Shown here one piece after another: positions 549 through 52,556 of a DNA stretch of 64,000 bases; positions within the stretch are counted from its first letter, which is position 1, and the number at the start of each line of letters is the position of its first letter. A program made the position numbers and the translations under genes. Under the pieces are notes generated by a model. That model had not been told where the DNA came from, did no database searches, and saw nothing but the letters and a program-made list of their open reading frames with translations. The stretch is from a virus (lineage: Duplodnaviria > Heunggongvirae > Uroviricota > Caudoviricetes). Location: the IMG/VR virus record IMGVR_UViG_2925939204_000001; one strand, 5' to 3'.

Positions 549-625
549 GATGGTGTAGCTCAGTAGGATAGAGCAGCAGCCTTCTAAGCTGTCGGTCGGT
601 GGTTCGAATCCACCCACCATCGCCA
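549..625 (+). tRNA. tRNA-Arg (anticodon TCT)
   Basis: Cloverleaf readable by eye: acceptor GATGGTG/CACCATC, D arm TAGCTCAGTAGGATAGAGCA, anticodon loop CTTCTAA, T loop TTCGAAT, encoded CCA. Confidence 0.8.
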
Positions 626-630
626 ATTTA

Positions 631-717
631 GGGGAGTTAGTCCGTAGGGGTAGCGGGGTAGACTGTAAATCTACTGTCATTGCGACTCGGGTGGTTCGAC
701 TCCATCACTCCCCACCA
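631..717 (+). tRNA. tRNA-Tyr (anticodon GTA), type II with long variable arm
   Basis: Acceptor GGGGAGT/ACTCCCC, anticodon stem-loop GTAGA-CTGTAAA-TCTAC, ~15-nt variable arm, T loop TTCGACT, encoded CCA. Confidence 0.75.
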
Positions 718-721
718 AATT

Positions 722-797
722 GCCGGTTTAGCTCAGTTGGTAGAGCAGTCGCTTTGTAAGCGAATGGTCAGCGGTTCGATCCCGTTAACCGGCACCA
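722..797 (+). tRNA. tRNA-Thr (anticodon TGT)
   Basis: Acceptor GCCGGTT/AACCGGC, D arm TAGCTCAGTTGGTAGAGCA, anticodon loop TTTGTAA, T loop TTCGATC, encoded CCA. Confidence 0.8.
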
Positions 798-1252
798 ACA
801 CAACAGGTAAGAGCATTTGTAGAGTTCGACTCTCTACCGTGGGCTTTTTCCCGCGATGCGAGCCATAAATGCTCTTACCGTTGTGATGAAGTGCAGCTCT
901 TTGAAGCAACCAGAAGATAAGCATCTGGCTTCACAACATAAACCGCAGGAACGACCAATAAACGGTAGTCCGTATGGAGAACACCCCGTTGAGGAAGAGG
1001 CCTGGCCGGAACCGTAACCGGCACTACAACGTTGAGAACACTGGCGTAACGGGGTCATATCCCAATCTACGAATAAATGTTGCGTTGCAGCGTGACAACC
1101 AGTGTTCTCAACATTGTGGTGAATGCGCAGGCTGATGCGCGAAAGACATTGCAGCTATTGCGGAAAAGAGCTGTTCGGCGGGGCAATTAAACGCCCGTGA
1201 GAGTCTGAAATAACCGCAAGCCGGAGATCAGCACCGGTCGCCACAATAACGG

Positions 1253-1339
1253 GAGAGTAGGGAGCATGGTGCTCAAGCGGTCTTGAAAACCGTCCCATTG
1301 CGCAAGCGATGATGGTTCGATTCCATTACTCTCCGCCAG
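1253..1339 (+). tRNA. tRNA-Ser (anticodon TGA), type II; atypical D arm
   Basis: Acceptor GGAGAGT/ACTCTCC, anticodon stem-loop GCGGT-CTTGAAA-ACCGT, long variable arm, T arm GATGG-TTCGATT-CCATT, discriminator G, CCA; D stem imperfect. Confidence 0.55.
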
Positions 1340-1498
1340 TGCAACGTTAAGAGTATTTGGCTAATTAAGCGAATGCCGGAAGCAGAACCGGATCACCAAA
1401 TGCGTACAGGCGTCATCGCCGCCCAGCCAGCCAAGTGCTCTTACCATTGCGGTGAATGCGGCTAAGCGCACGCGGAACAGTTAAAACAATCCTCCTTA

Positions 1499-1822
1499 GT
1501 GGTTAAGTCAAACATCCCGGCGTTAATTGTTAACTGGTTAACGTCACCTGGAGGCACCAGGCACCGCAATCTAATAAAGTTTCAAGCAATGGAGTTTTTG
1601 TTGTCAGACTTCAGATATAGATGGTTGTGGAAGGAGAGCCTGTGCATAGTGCAGTTATTTCTTCCGCTATTTGTCTGCTTTGTCATGCTTCCTGAGCTGA
1701 AATACGCAATTTCAGACACTTTAAGCACTATCGTTACTTTTGTGTTTTATCTTTACTTTGATTACTTATTGAGCACTAAAATCAATGAATTATCCGAGGA
1801 AATTCAAGGTGGCTGTAAGTGA
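1499..1822 (+). CDS. hypothetical hydrophobic protein (107 aa)
   Basis: Complete ORF between tRNA genes; hydrophobic stretches; no recognisable motif. Confidence 0.3.
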   Translation: MVKSNIPALIVNWLTSPGGTRHRNLIKFQAMEFLLSDFRYRWLWKESLCIVQLFLPLFVCFVMLPELKYAISDTLSTIVTFVFYLYFDYLLSTKINELSEEIQGGCK

Positions 1823-1950
1823 TGAATTTTTGGGCGTTTGCCGATAAGAACCCTGGTTGGACATTTTTATTTTTGCTGGTGGTTGCATATGGGGTCGAGC
1901 AAGCGGCAAAAGCCTTACGCGGTTCTGGCAAAAAGCGTAAGCGGAATTAA
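1822..1950 (+). CDS. small membrane peptide (42 aa, MNFWAFADKNPGWTFLFLLVVAYGV...)
   Basis: ATG overlaps the stop of the upstream ORF; one predicted TM helix followed by a basic tail; below the ORF-track size cutoff. Confidence 0.3.
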   Translation: MNFWAFADKNPGWTFLFLLVVAYGVEQAAKALRGSGKKRKRN

Positions 1951-1959
1951 CAGTAATCT

Positions 1960-2035
1960 GGCCCTTTAGCTCAGTGGTTAGAGCTGGCGACTCATAATCG
2001 CACGGTCACCGGTTCAAGTCCGGTAGGGGCCACCA
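1960..2035 (+). tRNA. tRNA-Met or tRNA-Ile2 (anticodon CAT)
   Basis: Acceptor GGCCCTT/AGGGGCC, D arm TAGCTCAGTGGTTAGAGCT, anticodon loop CTCATAA, T loop TTCAAGT, CCA; differs from host elongator tRNA-Met. Confidence 0.8.
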
Positions 2036-7906: not shown

Positions 7907-7920
7907 TAGTTTTCTAACAT
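7907..7920. promoter_or_regulatory. operator-like site TAGTTTTCTAACAT
   Basis: Copy of the recurring motif, 16 bp upstream of the 6854..7891 start codon. Confidence 0.4.
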
Positions 7921-10710: not shown

Positions 10711-11388
10711 ATGAATAACATGGCAACGAAAGAGCTTTTTAAGTTCCTTCCCAAATACAAAGCTCACAAAAACGTTAGTGCATCGAAAATCAAAAATGTT
10801 GTTATTTTCGGAGTAACTGATGCCCCACTTTGGGGCTGCATCGAACTCGTTGAACCAAAAGGGGCAACAGTTTGTGTTGACGCAATGTTTTTACAAAAAC
10901 ACCGACCAAAAACTGGCGGATATCTGATCGTTTATGAAAACGGTTATCTGTTCTATGCCCCGGAGAAACCATTTGAGGAACGCTATGGCCTGGTTAACGA
11001 CGCCTCCAAAAATGGAACCACGGTCATCATTACGGATGACAACGGCGTGATGATTAATCTTACCGGGAGCGTAACTATTTCTGCTGGTGGCATCACCACC
11101 CAGCAAGAAGAAATCGACCTTGAAGCAGCCGACTTTTCTGACGCGCTGATGTGGCTGAAGGATGGCAAGAAAGTTGCTCGACGCGGGTGGAACGGCGAAA
11201 ACCAATTCTGCTGGCTGGTTCCTGAAGGACAGTACCCGGCACGAATGGAAGCCATTAAGGGATATTTCCCCGGCGACCTCGTTCCGTATGGTGCTTATTT
11301 CGCCTTAAAAAATGCACAAGGTGTAGTTGTTCAGTGGGTTCCTTCTGTAGGCGACTTACTGGCATGTGACTGGTTTGTAGTGGAGTGA
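10711..11388 (+). CDS. DUF2829-like phage protein
   Basis: C-terminal segment ALMWLKDGKKVARRGWNG...CDWFVVE resembles the DUF2829 fold as I recall it. Confidence 0.45.
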   Translation: MNNMATKELFKFLPKYKAHKNVSASKIKNVVIFGVTDAPLWGCIELVEPKGATVCVDAMFLQKHRPKTGGYLIVYENGYLFYAPEKPFEERYGLVNDASKNGTTVIITDDNGVMINLTGSVTISAGGITTQQEEIDLEAADFSDALMWLKDGKKVARRGWNGENQFCWLVPEGQYPARMEAIKGYFPGDLVPYGAYFALKNAQGVVVQWVPSVGDLLACDWFVVE

Positions 11389-13379: not shown

Positions 13380-15300
13380 GTGCGCCGGGAGACCGGTAGA
13401 GATCAAGGGGTGAAAGTCCCCGACCATTGAAGGACCAGCAATCCACAAGGTCCCCGAGTCATGCGTTGCATACCGCGAGGTATGGGGCGAAGCGTTGACA
13501 GGGGTGTTGACAGGCCAGCCATTGAGCCACGAAATGTATATTAAATTACCGGGTGCCGACGTTGTACTGTTAACGGAAGGCAACATCATAGGGTGCGATA
13601 CTGCGAGTGCCACATGGACCCGGCGGGGTCTGAGACCCTGGCATGTCAATACGATCTCTACGCGGGAACCGGGAGATCTCCCCTCTGACCATCTGCCAGT
13701 GTCGGAGATGGCCCGCACCGGGAAGACGAGGAGTCATAGCCGGTGATGTACGGAGAGGAGAAGTCGGACTCGCTCATAGTAGCGGCGAAGCAGGCGAACA
13801 ACCCGAAAGGAGCGGAGTCAGTGGAGCGAAGGAGCGGGGCCAAGGGGAACGCGGAACAGCCACACATGCGCCGGACACAGAGCCGGGAAAGCATGTCACA
13901 GAGGCTGTCACGCGTGCGGGAAGCTGCGAAGCAGCAGAAGAAAGAACGGTTTACAGCATTGTTCCACCTGCTGACAGTCGAAGCACTGGAAGCCGCATTC
14001 CTCTCCCTGAGCAGGAAAGCGGCCGCGGGAGTGGATGGCATCAGGTGGATGGACTACGCCGGAAACATGAAGAACAACATAACAGATCTGCACCGGAGGC
14101 TACATCAGGGCAGCTACAGGGCGCAGCCCGGCAGGCGTCACTACATCCCAAAAGCGGATGGAAAACAACGCCCGCTCGGCATCGCCTCGCTGGAGGACAA
14201 GATCGTCCAGTATGCGCTGGTGAAAATCCTGAACGCAGTCTATGAAAACGACTTTATGGGGTTCTCATACGGGTTCAGACCCGGGCGAAACCAGCACGAT
14301 GCACTGGACGCACTGGCCACAGGGCTGGTACGCACTAACGTAAACTGGGTACTGGATGCCGACATCAGTCAGTTCTTCGACAGGGTGAGCCACGAATGGC
14401 TGATCAGGTTCACAGAGCATCGGATCGGCGACCGGAGGGTAATCAGGCTCATACGTAAGTGGCTCACAGCCGGGACGTCGGAGGAGGGTCAATGGCGAGC
14501 AACGGAGGAAGGCACCCCACAGGGTGCGGTCATCTCACCGCTGCTGGCAAACATATACCTCCACTACGTCTTCGATCTGTGGGCGCATCAGTGGCGACGT
14601 CGCTATGCCACAGGCAATGTGGTAATGGTCAGATACGCCGATGACATCGTCATCGGGTTCGACAAACGATACGATGCCCGGCGCTTCCGTATAGCCATGC
14701 AGCGCAGACTGAGGGAGTTCGGACTCACGGTTCACCCGGAGAAAACCCGTCTGATGGAGTTCGGCCGCTTCGCTGCCGAAAACCGTGCCATCAGGGGAAA
14801 AGGCAAACCAGAAACGTTCAACTTCCTCGGGTTCACGCACATCAGCGGGAAAGATCGCAACGGCAGGTTCATGCTGATACGAAAGACCCGCCGGGATCGG
14901 ATGACGGCAACTCTGAAAGCCATCAAAGACGGTCTGCGAAGGCGCTGGCATTACTCAATCCCCGAACAGGGAAAATGGCTCAGGAGAGTGGTTCAGGGAT
15001 ACCTGAACTATCACTCGGTACCGGGCAACTTCCCCACCATGCAGAAGTTCAGGACACACGTAACAAACCTCTGGCGCCGGGCGCTCAGGCGCAGGAGCCA
15101 GAAGGATGATACGACCTGGACGAAAGCAAACAAACTGGCAGCCGCATGGCTACCAAGGGTTCGGGTTCTTCATCCATGGCCTGTGGAGCGGTTCACCGCC
15201 AGACACCCGAGGCAGGAGCCCGGTGCGTAAATCGCGCACGCCGGGATCTGTGCGGGGGGTATCCGGTAACGGGTATCCCTACCGCGACATACATTGAAAA
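13380..15300 (+). mobile_element. group II intron (bacterial, ORF in domain IV); 3' boundary approximate
   Basis: 5' end GTGCGCC; internal RT/maturase ORF; 34-nt domain V-like hairpin with GUAA tetraloop and 2-nt bulge at 15252-15285 after the ORF. Confidence 0.7.
13743..15230 (+). CDS. group II intron-encoded reverse transcriptase/maturase
   Basis: RT motifs including GTPQGAVISPLLANIYL and YADD; C-terminal maturase region; no Cys-rich HNH endonuclease domain visible. Confidence 0.9.
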   Translation: MMYGEEKSDSLIVAAKQANNPKGAESVERRSGAKGNAEQPHMRRTQSRESMSQRLSRVREAAKQQKKERFTALFHLLTVEALEAAFLSLSRKAAAGVDGIRWMDYAGNMKNNITDLHRRLHQGSYRAQPGRRHYIPKADGKQRPLGIASLEDKIVQYALVKILNAVYENDFMGFSYGFRPGRNQHDALDALATGLVRTNVNWVLDADISQFFDRVSHEWLIRFTEHRIGDRRVIRLIRKWLTAGTSEEGQWRATEEGTPQGAVISPLLANIYLHYVFDLWAHQWRRRYATGNVVMVRYADDIVIGFDKRYDARRFRIAMQRRLREFGLTVHPEKTRLMEFGRFAAENRAIRGKGKPETFNFLGFTHISGKDRNGRFMLIRKTRRDRMTATLKAIKDGLRRRWHYSIPEQGKWLRRVVQGYLNYHSVPGNFPTMQKFRTHVTNLWRRALRRRSQKDDTTWTKANKLAAAWLPRVRVLHPWPVERFTARHPRQEPGA

Positions 15301-15374
15301 GGCATAGTTTGTGAAAGCGGGGTTTGTAGGCGCGCCACGCTGGGGGCTAATCACATTTCTCCCCCATCTTGCCG

Positions 15375-15647
15375 TTATTTTTTTGGTGCATCCTCGTTCT
15401 GATACACCGGATCGCTCCCTTTTGGCAACTGGAGGCTTAACTGCCGATAGTGCCGTAACCGTTCCATGAAATAGGTGCGCAGATTCTCTGGTTGCTCGCG
15501 GGCTACCTGTTCAGCTATGACAGGTATGTTCAATCGCTCTTTGTACGCCACACCGCTGGCAGCCAGATCAACGTTAACCTTATCCCGTTCTTCCTGACTT
15601 TTAGCTGCAATATTCCAATCGTGCATATCAAATCCCATCCAGAACAA
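15375..15647 (-). CDS. hot: Hot, homologue of DNA polymerase III theta subunit (HolE)
   Basis: [33 protein letters not shown] aligns with the HolE core. Confidence 0.8.
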
Positions 15648-16075
15648 TTGCGTAACGACTATTATTTAACCAGCAAAGTAACTTTTAATTTTTTTTCTTT
15701 TCCCATTGATTTTTGTGCACAGCTTATCTGCCTTGCCGTGCGCAGAATCAACTTTTTTCTTCCTGATTTATCCACAAAGTTATGCACTTGCAAGAGGGCC
15801 ATTTTCTAAATATTGTGATGTTTCACAAATGAAATGAATTTTGATTAATGAAGATAAGGAGAAAATTTGAGATGCAATCATGACGTTAATAGATAGGGTC
15901 TGCATTACAGACCCCATCCGCATCAAGGAATTAGCCGTTCCCTGATGTTGTTCCGAAAACATGTGCCGTAAGCTCACGTTAACGACTTTCTTTCACCGAA
16001 TCCAACTATATAGGGGTTGGGTTTCTACGTCAACGTGAGCAAGTGCTCCTTTACATTTGACAAGGAACCACCTTA

Positions 16076-16213
16076 ATGACTGCTTTTTTTCAGTTCCTGA
16101 GTGCATTTTTAGATGCGCCTGTTATTAGCCAGATTCTGGCGATCATCCTCATCATCGTTTTGATTTTGCTTTTAAGGTCAGTAAAAAATGGAATTATGCA
16201 CTGGCTTACTTAA
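16076..16213 (+). CDS. small hydrophobic peptide (45 aa, MTAFFQFLSAFLDAPVISQILAIILIIVLILLL...)
   Basis: Short ORF in the gap between hot and the pmg operon; one TM helix; weak RBS; below the ORF-track cutoff. Confidence 0.25.
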   Translation: MTAFFQFLSAFLDAPVISQILAIILIIVLILLLRSVKNGIMHWLT

Positions 16214-16287
16214 TGTTCAGTGAAACATTAAAATCTCCTTGATGTGGAAACAATCATTTTCTGTATGTGCTGGTGGGTACCTGTAGT

Positions 16288-16650
16288 TCAGCTTTCGTTG
16301 GCATTTAACTTCGTCTTTGCTTTCTCCACCAGCAACTTCCAGATGCCTATTTCATTAGCAGCCGCCTTGATGGCGGCATAAAAAGCATCTTGCTGATCGT
16401 AACGCTGAATCTGTTTTTTCAGTTTTGCCTCCACCAATTTAATTTCATTACGTGCTTTCTGAAGCCGCAGCGCCGCCCGGTTACGTCTGTTCTTGTATAG
16501 CGCGTTAATCTCTGATAATTGCTTTAATTTACCAGCCTGACTGCGGATTATCGCCTCTCTGACTTCTGCCGTGCGTCTCATCTGATCTCTTAAGAGTTCA
16601 CCGTTTTCGATAATTCTTTCAAGGTGTTTGATGTGATCTGCAACTCTCAT
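16288..16650 (-). CDS. hypothetical coiled-coil protein (120 aa)
   Basis: Last gene of the leftward operon; start overlaps upstream stop. Confidence 0.5.
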   Translation of the reverse strand: MRVADHIKHLERIIENGELLRDQMRRTAEVREAIIRSQAGKLKQLSEINALYKNRRNRAALRLQKARNEIKLVEAKLKKQIQRYDQQDAFYAAIKAAANEIGIWKLLVEKAKTKLNANES

Positions 16651-17579
16651 ACTTCACCCTCGCTTGTATCGCCAGCATCCACCAGCGGCAATAAAGCCCT
16701 GGCCATCTTATGAACCAATAGTGCATCAATAATGCCAAGCGTATGCCCCGGCTTAATGTTTAATGCCGCCTCAAGGTGACACCTTTCCAGGCCACTTTTC
16801 TCGGCTTGTTTATGATGATCTGGTGTAATAACGTCGCCCAAAACACGGCTAATTCTTTCTCGTAATTGCTGGGTGCCAGCACACTTGATCGCTGTATCGT
16901 GGAGACGGTTAACCAGTTCGCGATAAACATGCGGCTTAATTCGGATACGTTCACCGGTGACGCCCTTTCCTGGTGCTGGCACCGAACTATCCGGAATATC
17001 CGGATAGTTGCCAGCCTCGTAAGCTACCCGCAGCCAGTGCATGAATGTTTCAGTGGACACACAACCACAGTCCACATCGATTTTCCCGCGTTGCTGTTCC
17101 AGCCATTGCCCAAAATCCAACCTGTAAGTCTTACTTTCAAGTTCATCACCATTGAACTCGACTTTCTGCGACGCTATGAGAGCTGATTCGTATTGTTCGC
17201 GAGTGACAACTGACTGGTATTCATCGCTATCAAGGTCACCAATTGGAAGCTCAATCTCACAACAAAAATTGCGCCCAAAGAAAGTGTCTTTTTTGTGGTC
17301 TGAGCCAAAAGCAAAAGTCGCGCATGGTGCCATTAAATTGACACTGGGTAGGTAACAATAACTCATTCCATCAGGCCACCCGCCGCACTTAGGCAGTTCC
17401 TTCACTAACAAGTCGATAAACTTCATTTTTTTATCATCTTTGCAAGCCGCCAAAGCCATTTGGGCAAGTGCCAATACTTCATCTGCCGTATATCCAGCAC
17501 CGTGACCATACATTTCGATACGGGAAATAATCTCTGATATGCGCTCTTCAGTGATTCTGGTCATTTCTTTTTGCGCCAT
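16647..17579 (-). CDS. hypothetical protein (310 aa); segment PHVYRELVNRLHD...QQLRERISRVLG resembles the C-terminus of 28390..29001
   Basis: Complete ORF, translationally coupled; internal paralogous segment. Confidence 0.55.
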   Translation of the reverse strand: MAQKEMTRITEERISEIISRIEMYGHGAGYTADEVLALAQMALAACKDDKKMKFIDLLVKELPKCGGWPDGMSYCYLPSVNLMAPCATFAFGSDHKKDTFFGRNFCCEIELPIGDLDSDEYQSVVTREQYESALIASQKVEFNGDELESKTYRLDFGQWLEQQRGKIDVDCGCVSTETFMHWLRVAYEAGNYPDIPDSSVPAPGKGVTGERIRIKPHVYRELVNRLHDTAIKCAGTQQLRERISRVLGDVITPDHHKQAEKSGLERCHLEAALNIKPGHTLGIIDALLVHKMARALLPLVDAGDTSEGEV

Positions 17580-21591: not shown

Positions 21592-22204
21592 CGGCGCATC
21601 TGTTCACGATACTCCGGTGAAACTCACAAAAAATTTTCGCCGACTGCGGCCCTAATGGGTGAACATCGTGCGCACGCGGCAGTACAACCTCCCGTGCTTC
21701 CAGTTCTGCTATGCGATTCTCTGCGGATTCCAGCTTCTCGCGCATATCGTCAACGTACTCGACCAGAGATCCGCCAGCAGGAATTTCGCACTCCTCGACC
21801 AGTTGGAAGTAGATATCAGCTGCGGCCCGTGTGTTGCTATGCCTAGCGTCGCCCATCTCACCTTCACGAAGAGCATCGCGTTCGGCGGTAAGATTGGCTA
21901 TTTTGCTGTCTTTGCCTTCCAGCTCAACGCGCAGCTTCCCTACCGTTAGCGCAATATCCTCGTTCTCCTGGTCGCGGCATTTTATGTATTGCTGGTTTCT
22001 TTCCCATTCATCCAGTAGTGCCAGCACGGTTTCTGGTCCGGTCAGAAATTTGAAGGCGTTGAGCGCATCAATATCCACACCGTAATCCTTAAGTTCCTGT
22101 TCAGTTAACAAATCATCATCAGCTGGCAACATTAACAGGCGTTCCATTGCTGGAATTGCACGTTCCGCCACCTCACGCAGTGCCTGGTAATTAATTTCGC
22201 TCAC
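21545..22204 (-). CDS. hypothetical protein, paralogue family A ([26 protein letters not shown]...)
   Basis: 219 aa; N-terminal ~90 aa near-identical to 27107..27592. Confidence 0.55.
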   Translation of the reverse strand: MSEINYQALREVAERAIPAMERLLMLPADDDLLTEQELKDYGVDIDALNAFKFLTGPETVLALLDEWERNQQYIKCRDQENEDIALTVGKLRVELEGKDSKIANLTAERDALREGEMGDARHSNTRAAADIYFQLVEECEIPAGGSLVEYVDDMREKLESAENRIAELEAREVVLPRAHDVHPLGPQSAKIFCEFHRSIVNRCADEIRKVGVKVSIKGN

Positions 22205-22613
22205 TGGATGACTCCTTTACGAAGCTGTTCAGCGATATCTTCGAGAACGCCATCAGAGAATGAGCGGTCAAAATCTCCTTCCGGCGCATTAGCCATAAAC
22301 TCAGTAGAGGTAAGAATCATCCTGGCAATATCCGCGGCGTTCTTCGCAGTATCATCAATAAAACCAGCTACCCAGGCAGCCAGCATTCTGTTCGCCACAA
22401 AGTAGGCGCCTTCCTTGCGTGCTTCAGTCTTCACTTCAGCCAGGAAAGCGTCGGTGGCTGACATATTTCCTGTTGCCTTCATGGCCTTCAAAATAACCAG
22501 AACGCCATCTTGCCCTACCAACTCGGAGATAATCTCAGTGTTGTCGCCAACAACCTCACAGAATGCCTGAACAGCTTTACGAGCAAGTGCATTCTCCGCC
22601 GCCAGCGCCGCGC
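21916..22613. repeat. ~700-bp direct repeat, copy 1 (partner at 27304..28002)
   Basis: Long near-identical runs visible by eye, e.g. CTGGATGACTCCTTTACGAAGCTGTTCAGCGATATCTTCGAGAACGCC at 22204 and 27592. Confidence 0.8.
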
Positions 22614-27138: not shown

Positions 27139-27592
27139 TGCTGTTTATGATGCTGTCAGTGCATGGGGTAGAAAGCTGGGCATCTCCAGCAATTTTCATG
27201 ACCTCAACATCTGCATATCGAATACCGAGGTGTATCAGACCGGCTATGCCTGACTTAAGCCGAGCATTTTCCATAAATAGAACTTTTGCCCGCTGTTTTT
27301 CTGCTTCAAGCTCAACGCGCAGCTTCCCTACCGTTAGCGCAATATCCTCGTTCTCCTGATCGCGGAGTTTGATGTATTGCTGGTTTTTTTCCCGTTCATC
27401 CAGTAGTGCCAGCACGGTTTCTGGTCCGGTCAGAAATTTGAAGGCGTTGAGCGCATCAATATCCACACCGTAATCTTTAAGTTCCTGTTCACTTAACAAG
27501 TCATCATCAGCTGGCAACATTAACAGGCGTTCCATTGCTGGAATTGCACGTTCCGCCACCTCACGCAGTGCCTGGTAATTAATTTCGCTCAC
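27107..27592 (-). CDS. hypothetical protein, paralogue family A (second copy)
   Basis: 161 aa; N-terminus near-identical to 21545..22204. Confidence 0.55.
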
Positions 27593-28002
27593 TGGATGAC
27601 TCCTTTACGAAGCTGTTCAGCGATATCTTCGAGAACGCCATCAGAGAATGAGCGGTCAAAATCTCCTTCCGGCGCATTAGCCATAAACTCAGTAGAGGTA
27701 AGAATCATCCTGGCAATATCCGCGGCGTTCTTCGCAGTATCATCAATAAAACCAGCTACCCAGGCAGCCAGCATTCTGTTCGCCACAAAGTAGGCGCCTT
27801 CCTTGCGTGCTTCAGTCTTCACTTCAGCCAAGAAAGCGTCGGTGGCTGGCATATTTCCTGTTGCCTTCATGGCCTCCAAAATAACCAGAACGCCATCTCT
27901 CCCAACCTCCTCACAGATAACCTCAGTGTTGTCGCCAACAACATCGCAGAATGCCTGAACTGCTTTACGAGCCAGCTCATTCTCCGCAGCCAGCGCCGCG
28001 CG
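27304..28002. repeat. ~700-bp direct repeat, copy 2 (partner at 21916..22613)
   Basis: Same near-identical runs as copy 1. Confidence 0.8.
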
Positions 28003-29863: not shown

Positions 29864-30456
29864 TTTAAGTTGAATTGAAAAACTCTCCGATGTACATTCA
29901 CTACCGATTGGCACACCGGTCAACTTTTTGAGACAAACTGTTTAGTTTTTCGTATTATTGCCTCCGCCATACCTATGGCGGTGCAATATAGGTGGCTGAA
30001 AAGCCCCCGTTGACTCACGGTGTTCCAGCCTTTATTGCGCCGCCACCAGACCGTGGAACAGTCGATGGCGGCTCCGAAAGCAAGGAGTCACAACACTATG
30101 AACAACTACAGTCTTTTCCCATCACTCGTCGTCCACCACTCACGCGATAATCTGCATTCTTTACTCGCGCTGGGGGTGTCAAAATGACTGTTCGCTACCT
30201 CAACTTTCAAATCAAGAACATTACTGGCGGTTGCTATGACTGGTTTGTCACTCTCGGAAAAGAAGTGATCACCGGGAAGCTGGATGAAGTGAAAGCTAAA
30301 GCAATGGCCTACGCCTGCAAGCAAGCCCGGAAGAAATCCGCCAAAGCATAAAATACTGACTGTTGCGCCCTGGCATTATCGTGGGGTATATTTCTACGGC
30401 ACCTTAGAAAAACGGGTGCCGGGATTGGAACCCCGGATAATGCAAAAGGCGACACA

Positions 30457-30478
30457 GACGCCGAAAGCGTCTTTTTTT
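30457..30478 (+). terminator. Rho-independent terminator
   Basis: GACGCCGAAAGCGTC hairpin followed by TTTTTTT. Confidence 0.6.
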
Positions 30479-30479
30479 G

Positions 30480-30640
30480 TGTCATGCCATCGCACAGCCA
30501 TACGTAGCGTTTAGCTCAGAGATCAATGGTAGTGCTGGCTGGGCTGCCGAAAGGCAGGCCGGTTCCCTTTTGCGCCGGTAGTTCCAACCCAGTCAGTGCT
30601 ACCGCCATTGAGATTGGAACCTCACGCGGTAGCTCCTTAA
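30480..30640 (+). ncRNA. putative c4-like antisense RNA / immI leader region
   Basis: Non-coding leader upstream of an icd-ant pair with short mutually complementary elements (GTTCCAAC at ~30579 and TTGGAAC at ~30613) near the icd RBS; boundaries not determined. Confidence 0.3.
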
Positions 30641-30663
30641 ATTAGCAAAAGGAGGCTGCCATT

Positions 30664-30879
30664 ATGGCTACTACCCCTACCCCAACTCATTCTGAATTTA
30701 TCTGGCGTTTCTATTCCTGCCAAAAACACCTCTATATCTGCGTCATGGCTGCTACCGAAGCAGAAGCGCGCTCATACCTTCCCGAAGAACCCTGCATTTT
30801 TGCTGCTCGCTTCACTCTTGATGCGATGGAGATCCTCAATTACTGGAATCTGCCGATGAACTGCGTGGAGGTGCACTGA
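30664..30879 (+). CDS. Icd-like small protein (71 aa)
   Basis: Small ORF directly upstream of and coupled to the antirepressor gene; paralogue of 51308..51523. Confidence 0.5.
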   Translation: MATTPTPTHSEFIWRFYSCQKHLYICVMAATEAEARSYLPEEPCIFAARFTLDAMEILNYWNLPMNCVEVH

Positions 30880-31820
30880 TGAATCTGTCCATCTCTCAAA
30901 AAGCGACAATGACCAGTATTGAGATCGCGGAACTGGTAGGTAAGCGTCATGATAATGTGAAGCGTACCATTGAAGTATTAACTAAAGGTGGTGTCATTCA
31001 ATTTCCTCAAATTGAGGAAATTGAAAATAAACAATCAGTTGGCCCTCGTCGATTTTCCAAGGCTTACATCTTTGAAGGCGAACAAGGCAAGCGTGACAGT
31101 ATCATTGTCGTCGCACAGCTTTCTCCCGAATTTACCGCCCGGCTGGTGGACCGCTGGCGCGAACTGGAGAATGCCCGGGTACAGTTAAAATCAAAAGCCG
31201 AAATCCTGGCTGAAATGGCGCAAATGCATCTTGAGCATGAACGCCGGATCAACGCCGTAAATGCCCAGGTAGCCGAGGTATCAGCACAAGTATCGATGGT
31301 CGCTGAAACACTCGAGCAAATAAAGAAGGGCAATATTCCGGAAGGCTACATTGGCTACCGCCAGCTGGCTGCGAAATGTGGCCTGACTGAAGCCAAATGC
31401 CGAAACCTGGTCAACGCTTACCGGATTCCCACCGATACGCATGAGTTTTTAACTCCCGATGGTTTGCTTGCGCGACGCTCCATTGTGGCCCTGGCCCCCT
31501 TCCGGAAAGCCTTTAAGCAGGTGATGTCGGAGGCAGAACCACGCAATAAACGCTGGTATCATCCAAAGATGGGGATGTTTCAGGCAATCCACCATCCTGT
31601 GCCTGAAAGCCCAAAGGATAATCTGTCACTACATACCGCCAGAGAGAAGATCAGGACTGGATACGCAACAGTGTGTCGTCGTTCTTCCTGGCCTGAAGGT
31701 ATATGGGTGTGGCCCGAAGGTGGATCACGAAAGCACTGGCGCACCATCCGTGACGGGAAAATCCATGCTATTGATTTAGCTCCAGAGGATGTTATTGCTA
31801 TGGACTGGATTGTTAGTTAA
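30879..31820 (+). CDS. antirepressor-like protein (Rha-type N-terminal domain, shared Ant C-terminal domain)
   Basis: N-terminus TSIEIAELVGKRHDNVKRTIEVL resembles phage Rha regulatory domain; C-terminal ~210 aa near-identical to 51523..52521. Confidence 0.6.
   Translation: MNLSISQKATMTSIEIAELVGKRHDNVKRTIEVLTKGGVIQFPQIEEIENKQSVGPRRFSKAYIFEGEQGKRDSIIVVAQLSPEFTARLVDRWRELENARVQLKSKAEILAEMAQMHLEHERRINAVNAQVAEVSAQVSMVAETLEQIKKGNIPEGYIGYRQLAAKCGLTEAKCRNLVNAYRIPTDTHEFLTPDGLLARRSIVALAPFRKAFKQVMSEAEPRNKRWYHPKMGMFQAIHHPVPESPKDNLSLHTAREKIRTGYATVCRRSSWPEGIWVWPEGGSRKHWRTIRDGKIHAIDLAPEDVIAMDWIVS
31185..31820. repeat. ~635-bp direct repeat, copy 1 (partner at 51887..52521)
   Basis: Near-identical DNA across the 3' two-thirds of both ant genes. 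Confidence 0.85.
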
Positions 31821-31879
31821 ATGCTGCATCCCCGGCGACGCCGGGGATTTAACTGCCAAATAATCGGATTATCCGCACG

Positions 31880-50306: not shown

Positions 50307-50780
50307 ATGAACCTGAAGAGGATGGTTTTGAAAAAGATAATTTTGATTGTAATTGCGCTTTTAGCCATTTCTGGAATTTACCGAACAACGACGGCAGTTA
50401 TCGAACACATCAGGTATGTCCGATCGCTTGAAGACTCAAAATCACAACTGGAAAGCACGAACAACACGCTTTCTGCCGCATTACAGTTAAGTGAGAACGC
50501 TCGCTCAGCCATGCTGACCGAAAACGAAAGAATTAAAGCACTGGAAAAGGAGTACCAGCGCAAAACAGCAGAACTGAATGCCAACCTAATCAAACAACGA
50601 GAGGAAAGCCAGAATGAAATCACTCGCCTTGAAAATGCGTTACGCCGTGCTGGGATTAACGATGTGCGTGTGCCTGATGACGTTATCAGGATGCAGCGGG
50701 AACGGGCAAAAGCCATCAACCAGCGTGCCAGTGAAAATTACCGTAGAAGCCACCAGCAAGCCGCAGGCAAATCTGATTGA
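50307..50780 (+). CDS. Rz-like i-spanin
   Basis: N-terminal TM anchor then coiled-coil periplasmic domain; contains an embedded out-of-frame lipoprotein ORF. Confidence 0.5.
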   Translation: MNLKRMVLKKIILIVIALLAISGIYRTTTAVIEHIRYVRSLEDSKSQLESTNNTLSAALQLSENARSAMLTENERIKALEKEYQRKTAELNANLIKQREESQNEITRLENALRRAGINDVRVPDDVIRMQRERAKAINQRASENYRRSHQQAAGKSD

Positions 50781-50940
50781 TTACTCCCCTTGTTTAGTGC
50801 CAGAGGACACGCCAGTGCTGTTAAACAAGTATCCGACATACGCTGAACAGTTATTCAGCACGATCGACGAATGCAACCAACGAAACGCACTGAATAACCA
50901 AAGAAACAGGGAGATTTGGGAAGGGAAGGGGCGGCAGTGA
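50614..50940 (+). CDS. Rz1-like o-spanin lipoprotein (overlapped architecture)
   Basis: Lipobox LSGC after signal peptide; starts inside the Rz-like gene in another frame and extends beyond it. Confidence 0.45.
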   Translation: MKSLALKMRYAVLGLTMCVCLMTLSGCSGNGQKPSTSVPVKITVEATSKPQANLIDYSPCLVPEDTPVLLNKYPTYAEQLFSTIDECNQRNALNNQRNREIWEGKGRQ

Positions 50941-50966: not shown

Positions 50967-51003
50967 TATGTTAGAAAAATAATTTGAATTTTCGAACATA
51001 AAC
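50967..51003. promoter_or_regulatory. paired operator-like sites (TATGTTAGAAAAATAAT and variant TTTTCGAACAT)
   Basis: Copies of the recurring motif upstream of the second immI-like module. Confidence 0.35.
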
Positions 51004-51134
51004 AATAAAATAAATCATCAAAAATTTGATGTTGATCTTCCATGTTTTCAGGCTTATATTCACGCCGTTGCAGCAAATTCTGCGACCGGGTTTAGCAGCC
51101 TGAATGTACATGCGGACAACCGCAGATATCCGAT

Positions 51135-51300
51135 ATTGCGGTATTTTTGTGTCCGTAAAACCATGTTACGCCCGAATTATGGTGGGGCGTGATGGGGAGG
51201 CTTCGGCCTGCTGGTTTCATGTACGCCAGTCTGCTAACCCCGTCACGTCCTGCCACCCGTTTAGCAGCGGGTAGCAGGTTGTTAAACCTGTACATGAGGC
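51135..51300 (+). ncRNA. putative c4-like antisense RNA / immI leader region (second copy, different sequence)
   Basis: Same architecture as 30480-30640: hairpin with T run at ~51101-51130, then leader with self-complementary TGTACA-containing elements near the icd RBS. Confidence 0.25.
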
Positions 51301-51307
51301 CGTAACT

Positions 51308-51523
51308 ATGGTTAATGCCAATCCTTGCGCACGCCCGGAATTTATCTGGCGCTTTTATTCCTGCACAAAACACACCTACATCAGCGTAATGGCAGCTACT
51401 GAGGCTGAAGCGCGTTCATTTCTTCCTACAGATCCATGCATTTTTGCCGCTCGCTTTAAACTCGATGCTCTGGACGTTTTGACCTACTGGAACCGCCCAA
51501 TGAACTGCGTGGAGGTGCATTAA
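51308..51523 (+). CDS. Icd-like small protein (71 aa)
   Basis: Paralogue of 30664..30879 (shared EFIWRFYSC...VMAATEAEARS...PCIFAARF...NCVEVH). Confidence 0.5.
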   Translation: MVNANPCARPEFIWRFYSCTKHTYISVMAATEAEARSFLPTDPCIFAARFKLDALDVLTYWNRPMNCVEVH

Positions 51524-52521
51524 TGGACGCAGTAACTATCAATAACAAACCATTCCCGACTCTCGAATATAAAAATCAGCGTGTAGTGACCTTTGAGATG
51601 ATTGATGAGGTGCACGAACGTGTTGATGGGGCAGCCAGGGGAACATTTAAGCGAAACAGAAGTCGTTTCATTGAAGGGGTGGATACTTATGTTATTGATT
51701 ATTCTGAAAAGGGCTTTTTAAGCCCATTTGGAATTGATGTCCCCCCGCGCGGTTTGCGCGTGTTCACTGAGTCCGGCTATCTGATGATTGTTAAGTCATT
51801 CAATGACGATCTGGCCTGGCAAGTGCAACGTGAGCTGGTAAACAGCTATTTTCGTATTAAGCAATTAATACCGGAGCACTCACCGCTAAAATCAAAAGCC
51901 GAAATCCTGGCCGAAATGGCGCAAATGCATCTTGAGCATGAACGCCGGATCAACGCCGTAAATGCCCAGGTAGCCGAGGTATCAGCACAAGTATCGATGG
52001 TCGCTGAAACACTCGAGCAAATCAAGAAAGGCAATATTCCGGAAGGCTACATTGGCTACCGCCAGCTGGCGGCGAAATGTGGCCTGACTGAAGCAAAATG
52101 TCGCAACCTGGTCAACGCTTACCGGATTCCCACCGATACGCATGAGTTTTTAACTCCCGATGGTTTGCTTGCGCGACGCTCCATTGTGGCCCTGGCCCCC
52201 TTCCGGAAAGCCTTTAAGCAGGTGATGTCGGAGGCAGAACCACGCAATAAACGCTGGTATCATCCAAAGATGGGGATGTTTCAGGCAATCCACCATCCTG
52301 TGCCTGAAAGCCCAAAGGATAATCTGTCACTACATACCGTCAGAGAGAAGATCAGGACTGGATACGCAACAGTGTGTCGTCGTTCTTCCTGGCCTGAAGG
52401 TATATGGGTGTGGCCCGAAGGTGGATCACGAAAGCACTGGCGCACTATCCGGGACGGGAAAATCCATGCTATTGATTTAGCGCCAGAGGATATTGTTGCT
52501 ACGGACTGGATTGTTAGTTAA
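51523..52521 (+). CDS. antirepressor-like protein (KilA-N/Bro-N-type N-terminal domain, shared Ant C-terminal domain)
   Basis: N-terminal ~110 aa unrelated to 30879..31820; C-terminal ~210 aa near-identical. Confidence 0.6.
   Translation: MDAVTINNKPFPTLEYKNQRVVTFEMIDEVHERVDGAARGTFKRNRSRFIEGVDTYVIDYSEKGFLSPFGIDVPPRGLRVFTESGYLMIVKSFNDDLAWQVQRELVNSYFRIKQLIPEHSPLKSKAEILAEMAQMHLEHERRINAVNAQVAEVSAQVSMVAETLEQIKKGNIPEGYIGYRQLAAKCGLTEAKCRNLVNAYRIPTDTHEFLTPDGLLARRSIVALAPFRKAFKQVMSEAEPRNKRWYHPKMGMFQAIHHPVPESPKDNLSLHTVREKIRTGYATVCRRSSWPEGIWVWPEGGSRKHWRTIRDGKIHAIDLAPEDIVATDWIVS
51887..52521. repeat. ~635-bp direct repeat, copy 2 (partner at 31185..31820)
   Basis: Near-identical DNA with a handful of substitutions. 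Confidence 0.85.
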
Positions 52522-52556
52522 TTACTGTTGCCCCGGCCTGTCCGGGGCTTTCGTGA

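Follow-up and report, generated by a model that had tools for sequence, protein, structure and literature searches.

The subject of this study is module 2, an immI-like cassette in a DNA stretch of 64,000 nucleotides (hereafter the window, meaning the whole stretch), which was taken from the virus record IMGVR_UViG_2925939204_000001 (Caudoviricetes). The window also carries a related cassette, module 1, and the antirepressor (ant) genes of the two modules have a common 3' block. The window was 100% identical, over the tested region, to the Escherichia coli plasmid NZ_CP020051.1 (91,291 bp), and it was collinear with the phage-plasmid D6 in reverse orientation, with 92–99% identity over most of its length. 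From this match and this collinearity, the window belongs to a plasmid prophage of the D6 type, which is only distantly related to P1. D6 carries orf53 where the window has module 2, and nothing immI-like was found at that site of D6.

Module 2 is a complete transcription unit of the P1 immI type, approximately 1.6 kb long (50969–52548). It starts with an operator-like site and a promoter; the a1/b1 leader and its terminator, a C4 RNA, the targets a2 and b2, icd, ant and a final terminator follow in this order. An earlier reading of this DNA, made without database searches (the sequence-only reading), had called the module immI-like, and c4-a1b1, C4, icd and the coupled ant were indeed all present in this order. 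It had set the start at 51101, which keeps b1 (GTACATG, 51106–51112) inside but cuts off the operator-like site, the promoter and a1 (TTAGCAG, 51092–51098); the unit starts at approximately 50966. The promoter scan and the alignment with the annotated P1 promoter gave a sigma-70 promoter-like sequence, TTGATC-17-TATATT (51032–51060, +), which is the positional homologue of the P1 promoter P1c4 (former P51b). The leader (51054–51141, +) was identified by Rfam c4-a1b1 (RF03163 at 51054–51106, 53.5 bits against a gathering threshold of 46.7), by the exact target copies a1 and b1 and by its fold, and a terminator-like hairpin (51120–51141) followed by a U run comes after these copies.

The C4 antisense RNA of module 2 lies at 51175–51260 (+) and could be aligned with the c4 of P1 and P7. 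It matched the Rfam family C4 (RF01695) with 71.7 bits against a gathering threshold of 45, and its fold was canonical (−45.4 kcal/mol, z −5.2). In this RNA, as in the C4 of module 1, b' (here CATGTAC, 51218–51224) sits in a hairpin loop and a' (here CTGCTAA, 51231–51237) in a single-stranded joint. The following segment (51261–51299, +) contains a2 (51261–51267) and b2 (51290–51296), which match a' and b', respectively, with perfect complementarity over 7 nt and occupy the positions known from P1, and b2 extends into the icd ribosome-binding site GAGG. The icd-like gene (51308–51523, +; 71 aa) is an open reading frame (ORF) that matched phrog_1426 with E 4e-37 and is named "host cell division inhibitor Icd-like protein" in RefSeq (WP_023908691.1). 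Its stop codon overlaps the start of ant2 in TAATG, and this is the arrangement expected for translational coupling. The ant2 gene (51523–52521, +; 332 aa) was recognized from its ORF, an ORF6N head at aa 14–92, the shared block from aa 122 and matches to PHROG antirepressor families. A terminator hairpin (52530–52548, +; −16.7 kcal/mol, z −3.3) forms the right edge of the module.

The operator-like site at the left edge, TGTTAGAAAAATAATTT (50969–50985, +), belongs to a repeated asymmetric motif, TGTTAGAAAAyTAA or more exactly (T/G)TGTTAGAAA(A/T)yTAA, with eight copies in the window, at 7918(−), 9328(−), 24546(+), 29197(+), 29861(−), 41339(−), 50970(+) and 52978(+). The motif precedes c1, ref, module 2 and orf52 among others, and it occurs once more outside the window, in front of a third module that adjoins repL. 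This distribution suggests that the motif is likely the operator of the D6-type C1 repressor, and the copy in front of module 2 is a candidate site for it.

Studies have shown that P1 and P7 are heteroimmune (PMC6906374). The a and b targets are TTGACAG and GTTAGTG in P1, TTAGCAG and GATTGTG in P7, TTAGCAG (the P7 allele) and GTACATG (a new allele) in module 2, and TTGGAAC and GCAAAAGG in module 1, which has a different scaffold. In the alignment of module 2 with annotated P1 and P7, the recognition sequences differed, whereas conservation was approximately 90% in the promoter, in the leader, in the scaffold of C4 and at the start of icd (88–91% identity to P1/P7 immI from the leader to icd). 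Against P1, only the a and b sites are altered, and the alteration is matched across all three copies; the new b sequence is present in b1, in the b' loop and in b2. Since b' is new and a' is that of P7, the specificity of module 2 is a hybrid that is seen neither in P1 nor in P7.

Every C4 examined, in D6, CP042620.1, NZ_CP122828.1 and the reconstructed source-like plasmid, had perfect 7-nt a1/b1 and a2/b2 partners at fixed positions, and both modules of the window had perfect 7–8-nt complements of a' and b' at the P1 positions. A simple matrix of duplex energies gave −11.7 to −12.4 kcal/mol for cognate b' interactions and −7.9 kcal/mol or weaker for non-cognate ones, a separation comparable to or better than that between P1 and P7. 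By these energies, the distance that separates module 2 from the P1-type module, and also from P7, is as large as that between P1 and P7. Among the loci fetched, P1 and P7 included, the P1/P7 scaffold carried at least five b' alleles (CACTAAC, CACAATC, CGTAAGT, CATTCGT and CATGTAC) and at least two a' alleles (CTGTCAA and CTGCTAA), in nine of the ten possible combinations, and the scaffold of module 1 carried two a' and two b' alleles in three of four combinations. The targets matched wherever they were checked. No two cassettes of the P1/P7 scaffold in the same genome were alike at both sites.

Module 1 has the same general plan. Its IsrK-like leader (30399–30477, +; Rfam isrK RF01394, 62.5 bits against a gathering threshold of 50) contains a1 (30425–30431) and b1 (30442–30449), and the terminator scan gave an intrinsic terminator at 30456–30472. 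The C4 RNA of module 1 (30522–30609, +; Rfam C4, 76.7 bits, with the same threshold of 45; fold z −5.5) has b' CCTTTTGC at 30566–30573 and a' GTTCCAA at 30581–30587, and the targets a2 (30614–30620) and b2 (30645–30652) lie 3' of it. The icd-like gene (30664–30879, +; 71 aa, Icd-like in RefSeq, phrog_1426) overlaps with its stop the start of ant1 in TGATG. The ant1 gene (30879–31820, +; 313 aa, with a Rha head) is the orthologue of D6 orf82, and a terminator hairpin follows (31829–31847, +; −17.2 kcal/mol, z −3.1).

A third c4-icd-ant module adjoins repL in NZ_CP020051.1 (1–1400 and 90000–91291), outside the window. P1 has identical a/b sequences and an identical a2-b2 leader, and a lysogen of the NZ_CP020051.1 type should on this ground silence the ant gene of an incoming P1. 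The ant of this repL-proximal module ends after a conserved "mid" domain (235 aa) and is followed by a separate ORF of 65 aa, a homologue of the tail that ant1 and ant2 carry.

Exact alignment of the two modules of the window gave a single ungapped block, 31186–31850 against 51887–52551, with 641 of 665 positions identical (96.4%). The coding part (copy 1, 31186–31820, +; copy 2, 51887–52521, +) was 635 bp long with 14 mismatches (97.8% identity), of which 10 were synonymous and 4 non-synonymous, and it comprised 211 codons that encode a coiled-coil linker, the "mid" domain and the 65-aa tail. The mismatches were distributed along the block, which contains a mismatch-free stretch of 235 bp (31404–31638 in copy 1). 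The 30 bp 3' of the ant stop codons (20/30 identical) contain the homologous terminator hairpins. The left edge is abrupt, with identity at chance level directly left of 31186/51887. The copies are 20,701 bp apart, and only three repeat families of at least 60 nt exist in the window. The sequence-only reading had described near-identical ant 3' ends over approximately 635 bp with a spacing of approximately 20.7 kb, icd-like genes with approximately 70% identity and unrelated N-terminal domains. The block and the spacing agree with the measured values, and the identity, which might have proved much lower on exact alignment, stayed at 97.8%; the icd genes were 73.6% identical over 216 nt, and Pfam assigned the two heads to different families.

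The head of ant1 is Phage_pRha (PF09669, residues 11–98, E 4e-9, 37.3 bits against a gathering threshold of 29.9), as had been read from the sequence, and the head of ant2 is ORF6N (PF10543, residues 14–92, E 5e-12, 46.4 bits against 27.8). The earlier label of KilA-N/Bro-N for ant2 came near the mark but named another family than the one found: these Pfam models gave no match, and ORF6N alone was reported at E ≤ 0.01. The ORF6N-type protein falls in a cluster of 193 member sequences, and the ORF6N-headed antirepressor architecture exists elsewhere. The shared block, in turn, had 50 relatives only among the 1.84 billion representative proteins searched. Its first 135 residues (the coiled-coil linker and the "mid" domain) also form the C-terminal half of Rha- or ORF6N-headed proteins of 230–290 aa, and its last 65 residues otherwise occur only as small stand-alone proteins, from which it appears that the tail fusion is peculiar to the ant1/ant2 type of D6. 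The ant2 gene is a chimera, in which an ORF6N head gives way, where the conserved linker begins, to an effector half of the D6 module-1 type. The shared 635 bp would be this effector half, which is under purifying selection, probably because the resident partner on which each cassette has to act is the same.

The 65-aa tails (52324–52518 and 31623–31817, both +) are homologous to the 65-aa ORF of the repL-proximal module. The Tad2-like family (DUF2829, PF11195) was sought in them, and no Pfam match was found in the tails of the window. Sub-threshold matches to PF11195 were given by the stand-alone homologue adjoining repL (E 0.05) and by the homologue P0161 (23.9 bits against a cutoff of 25), with E values of homologues from 0.05 to 6e-5. 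The AlphaFold model of the tail had a pLDDT of 70.5, and the highest-probability Foldseek matches were the Tad2 structures 8wje (0.92, TM 0.54) and 8v3e (0.87, TM 0.58), at non-significant E values of 0.16–0.4. The tail profile found nothing among the Protein Data Bank (PDB) sequences, and neither BLASTP nor hhalign against the Tad2-like protein of the window itself gave support. PDB chain sequence searches with ant2 and the family profiles returned chance or coiled-coil matches only. The PF11195 matches of the homologues, the model and the Foldseek matches are weak, convergent hints of a Tad2-like fold, all below significance. The Tad2-like protein just mentioned (225 aa, 10711–11388, +) has a Tad2-like domain (Thoeris anti-defence 2, PF11195) at residues 141–224 with E 8e-22; it adjoins dut and is a candidate anti-Thoeris gene.

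The cassette was also found elsewhere among plasmids. In NZ_CP122828.1 and CP099081.1, the same unit is placed between the repB and tub genes, and in CP042620.1 it occurs with a Rha head at the site that module 2 occupies in the window. NZ_CP127300.1 (pAPEC201603) carries four cassettes, namely module 1, those at site A and site B, and the repL-proximal one. The homology between the site-A and site-B cassettes starts at the operator-like site and ends at the right-hand terminator, that is, at the two edges of module 2. Since the same operator-to-terminator unit lies at different sites, we believed that the cassette is a movable transcription unit. Module 2 with the ORF6N head is rare and was found in 9 of 5,426 complete E. 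coli genomes at a coverage of at least 80%. Three points thus go beyond the sequence-only reading: each module has its own matched C4/target specificity, a third module adjoins repL outside the window, and the cassette appears to be mobile across sites.

In P1 immI, C4 blocks the expression of icd and ant through a2 and b2. In Salmonella, the Gifsy-1 IsrK locus has a leader small RNA whose terminator is leaky, followed downstream by a processed RNA, as well as orf45 coupled to anrP; the leader RNA carries upstream target copies and activates, in trans, the translation of the small ORF and of the coupled antirepressor (PMC4825925). By analogy with both systems, the promoter of module 2 would be constitutive and would transcribe the leader with the a1/b1 target copies and a leaky terminator, and the read-through RNA would be processed into C4. 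The b' loop and the a' joint of C4 would then pair with a2 and b2 on the same kind of transcript and cover the icd ribosome-binding site. The antirepressor should be kept off in the lysogen because the translation of ant would be coupled to that of icd, which C4 blocks. Icd and Ant would be made once C4 is titrated or outrun, and Ant would then inactivate a C1-type prophage repressor. Since module 2 has its own specificity, it should neither silence nor be silenced by module 1 or the P1-type repL-proximal module. The sequences show how the cassette is built, that its RNA fits its targets, that it is a mosaic and in which plasmids it occurs, whereas its expression, the antirepressor activity and the target of Ant, and the orthogonality of the modules in vivo are inferred. 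In this study, we consider it probable, with some confidence, that module 2 is an additional, complete and functional immI-type cassette that replaces D6 orf53 and carries a chimeric ant2 and a C4 specificity of its own.

Several observations weigh against this view. The C1 operator consensus of P1 had no match with three or fewer mismatches in the window, and the operator proposed for D6 is a repeated motif only. With regard to specificity, module 2 has the same a' as P7, the a' strand also partially matches the conserved TAGCAG in all leaders of the P1 scaffold, and pairs of cassettes with a difference in a' alone or in b' alone are present in some sister plasmids; in pAPEC201603, for example, the C4 RNAs of site A and site B have a common b', CATGTAC, and a' alone differs, and CP042620.1 likewise has cassettes with a single differing site. 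With regard to the antirepressors, BLASTP of the window Ant proteins against P1 Ant1 gave nothing significant, and the window Ants had no match to Pfam ANT/KilAC (PF03374), which P1 Ant1 matches at E 1e-30. The ant-family profile nevertheless aligned with residues 114–287 of P1 Ant1 in hhalign (probability 98.3%, E 1.6e-14), and because of this profile match, unseen by BLASTP and Pfam ANT, the window Ants appear to be distant relatives of the P1 antirepressor, linked at the profile level only.

Other explanations of the repeat and of module 2 were also considered. No evidence was found in favour of a collapse or mis-join during assembly, and we regard its probability as negligible: the same arrangement recurs at 99–100% identity in eight or more complete, independent plasmids that come from various hosts and countries, and a short-read metagenome assembly breaks exactly within both copies of the block, as expected of a true repeat. 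The copies also have distinct flanks, in addition to the 14 differences between them. It is almost as hard to believe that module 2 is a decaying, non-functional duplicate. In RefSeq, a number of the ant genes on these plasmids are flagged as pseudogenes that are incomplete, which would agree with decay, but these flags are annotation artefacts since the module-1 ORFs are intact at 313 aa. The flag "incomplete, missing C-terminus" given by RefSeq/PGAP to the Rha-type ant of module 1 in several plasmids was rejected on the basis of the translations; PLSDB omits this gene. Moreover, ant2 is annotated as intact, with 332 aa, in all carriers, the promoter and the terminators are conserved, the three a sites and the three b sites match perfectly, and most differences in the shared block are synonymous.

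The sequence-only reading had further proposed that the direct repeats could mediate deletion of everything between them, and the repeats might thus mainly be a substrate for a RecA-dependent deletion of 20.7 kb that gives a smaller natural plasmid variant. A direct repeat of 635 bp at 97.8% identity, including 235 bp of perfect identity, is in principle ample for homologous recombination, so such a deletion is mechanistically plausible, and to this extent the proposal holds. The predicted junction, however, was absent from 72,556 PLSDB plasmids and from 5,426 complete E. coli genomes. The only PLSDB record that covered at least 80% of the junction query was a full-size plasmid of 93.7 kb with a Rha-type cassette at the same site, and the 80-kb plasmid pVTB432v-3 was rejected as a deletion derivative because it keeps both modules and the whole interval. 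Besides the hig locus, dmt, glnS and both partition systems, the interval holds homologues of the P1 tail/baseplate genes 5, 6, 7, 24, 25 and 26 and of mat; without these genes, what is left would be a defective phage and, as a plasmid, unpartitioned or unstable. We therefore find it quite improbable that deletion is the main significance of the repeats. Continuing gene conversion within the same plasmid, by which the blocks would be kept alike in concerted evolution, deserves a little more credit, yet it is still unlikely. In NZ_CP122828.1, the blocks are 99.4% identical and mutual nearest neighbours, with similarity over 1,157 bp; the two blocks of the window fall in the same clade although the module-1 alleles of the population span 87–99% identity; and the 235-bp perfect stretch, together with the Ref and RdgC encoded on the plasmid, would also suit conversion. 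On the other hand, the module-2 block resembles the module-1 alleles found in other genomes slightly more (98.1%) than it does its own module 1 (97.8%), the mismatches are spread along the block, and the within-genome identity falls to 96.1%, 95.1% and 93.9% in sister plasmids with the same cassette and to 91.9% in CP042620.1. Continuous gene conversion was rejected as a general explanation on account of these observations, and the range of 91.9–99.4% points instead to domain shuffling with occasional recombination.

The simplest reading of these data is a history of three steps. An ORF6N-headed antirepressor would have recombined with a D6 module-1 ant where the conserved linker begins and would thus have gained its effector half, the chimeric cassette would then have spread among D6-like backbones, and further exchanges would occur now and then. 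The Rha heads are much more variable than the block (69–100% at the protein level). The sequence-only reading had called the repeat a recent domain swap or gene conversion; we keep the recombinational swap, but "recent" is relative, as the copies differ by 2.2% (approximately 0.07 per synonymous site, by hand estimate), and ongoing conversion is unsupported.

In a wider sense, we tentatively speculated, as a possibility well short of probable, that D6-like phage-plasmids collect two to four immI cassettes with combinatorial C4 alleles and a common Ant effector half, as a kind of "key-ring" in conflicts among plasmids of the P1/P7/D6 type. If so, each extra C4 would silence incoming antirepressors of its specificity, each extra ant would escape the C4 of a resident and induce it, and the operator-to-terminator cassette would be the unit that moves. 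More speculatively still, a fused Tad2-like tail might tie antirepression to a nucleotide signal. If the cassettes are orthogonal, they would form a natural panel of antisense RNA/target pairs whose differences are confined to one or two 7-nt sites, and the site that sets heteroimmunity of the P1/P7 type would become directly testable. This would also account for the way in which related phage-plasmids in common hosts escape or trigger mutual induction, and antirepressor domain shuffling would be documented at nucleotide resolution. For annotation, the "pseudogene" flags on module-1 ant genes in RefSeq are wrong.

The window contains some other features. Directly 5' of the module, an overlapping pair of ORFs (50307–50780 and 50614–50940, +) matched Rz-like spanin families, and the second ORF (50614–50940) has a lipobox-like LSGC motif, which suggests a spanin pair. 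Another direct repeat of the window, 21916–22215 against 27304–27603 (+), is 300 nt long with 97% identity and a spacing of 5,388 bp, and both copies match the ead/Ea22-like gene region of D6 (D6 82202–82325). A strong Rfam match to group II intron domains D1–D4 (RF02005, 186.6 bits) at 13413–13638 (+) falls within approximately 3.3 kb (approximately 13380–16675) that has no counterpart in D6 and suggests a group II intron insertion. Four tRNA genes, one with a weak score (41.9 bits), lie at 549–2032 (+), as in D6-like plasmids.

The closest known system is the immI operon of P1 and P7. Module 2 shares with P1 immI (c4-icd-ant1/ant2) the order of promoter, a1/b1, C4, a2/b2, icd and ant, the P51b-type promoter, the position of b2 on the icd ribosome-binding site and the overlap of icd and ant, and the leader, c4 and icd start are 88% identical. 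In contrast, module 2 has another b' and the a' of P7, lacks a P1-type C1 operator and a P51a promoter, encodes an Ant of another sequence family with kinship at the profile level only, is not followed by kilA-repL, and is one of three cassettes rather than the sole one. Compared with P7 immI, a', a1 and a2 are identical (CTGCTAA/TTAGCAG) and the scaffold is 91% identical, whereas b is CATGTAC/GTACATG instead of CACAATC/GATTGTG. D6 itself has two icd-ant regions, of which orf83-orf82 is the orthologue of module 1 (94% identity) and orf19-orf18-orf17, which contains the second region orf19-orf18, corresponds to the repL-proximal module of the source-like plasmid; unlike the window, D6 has orf53 at the site of module 2 and no ORF6N-headed ant. 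Similarly, the Gifsy-1 isrK-orf45-anrP locus of Salmonella resembles module 1, whose leader fits Rfam isrK, in its leaky-terminator leader and its coupled small ORF and antirepressor, but it belongs to a chromosomal lambdoid prophage. Shuffling of Rha, ORF6N, Bro-N, KilA-N and KilA-C domains among the regulators of phages was reportedly described by Iyer et al. in 2002. The swappable heads on a common C-terminal half seen here are of the same kind, and Rha- or ORF6N-headed representatives share the "mid" domain; the difference is that here the swap lies between two paralogues of one genome and can be followed at near nucleotide-identical resolution. We believe that this is real but fairly ordinary shuffling of phage modules, and that the interest lies in the stacked, differently keyed cassettes and not in the repeat.

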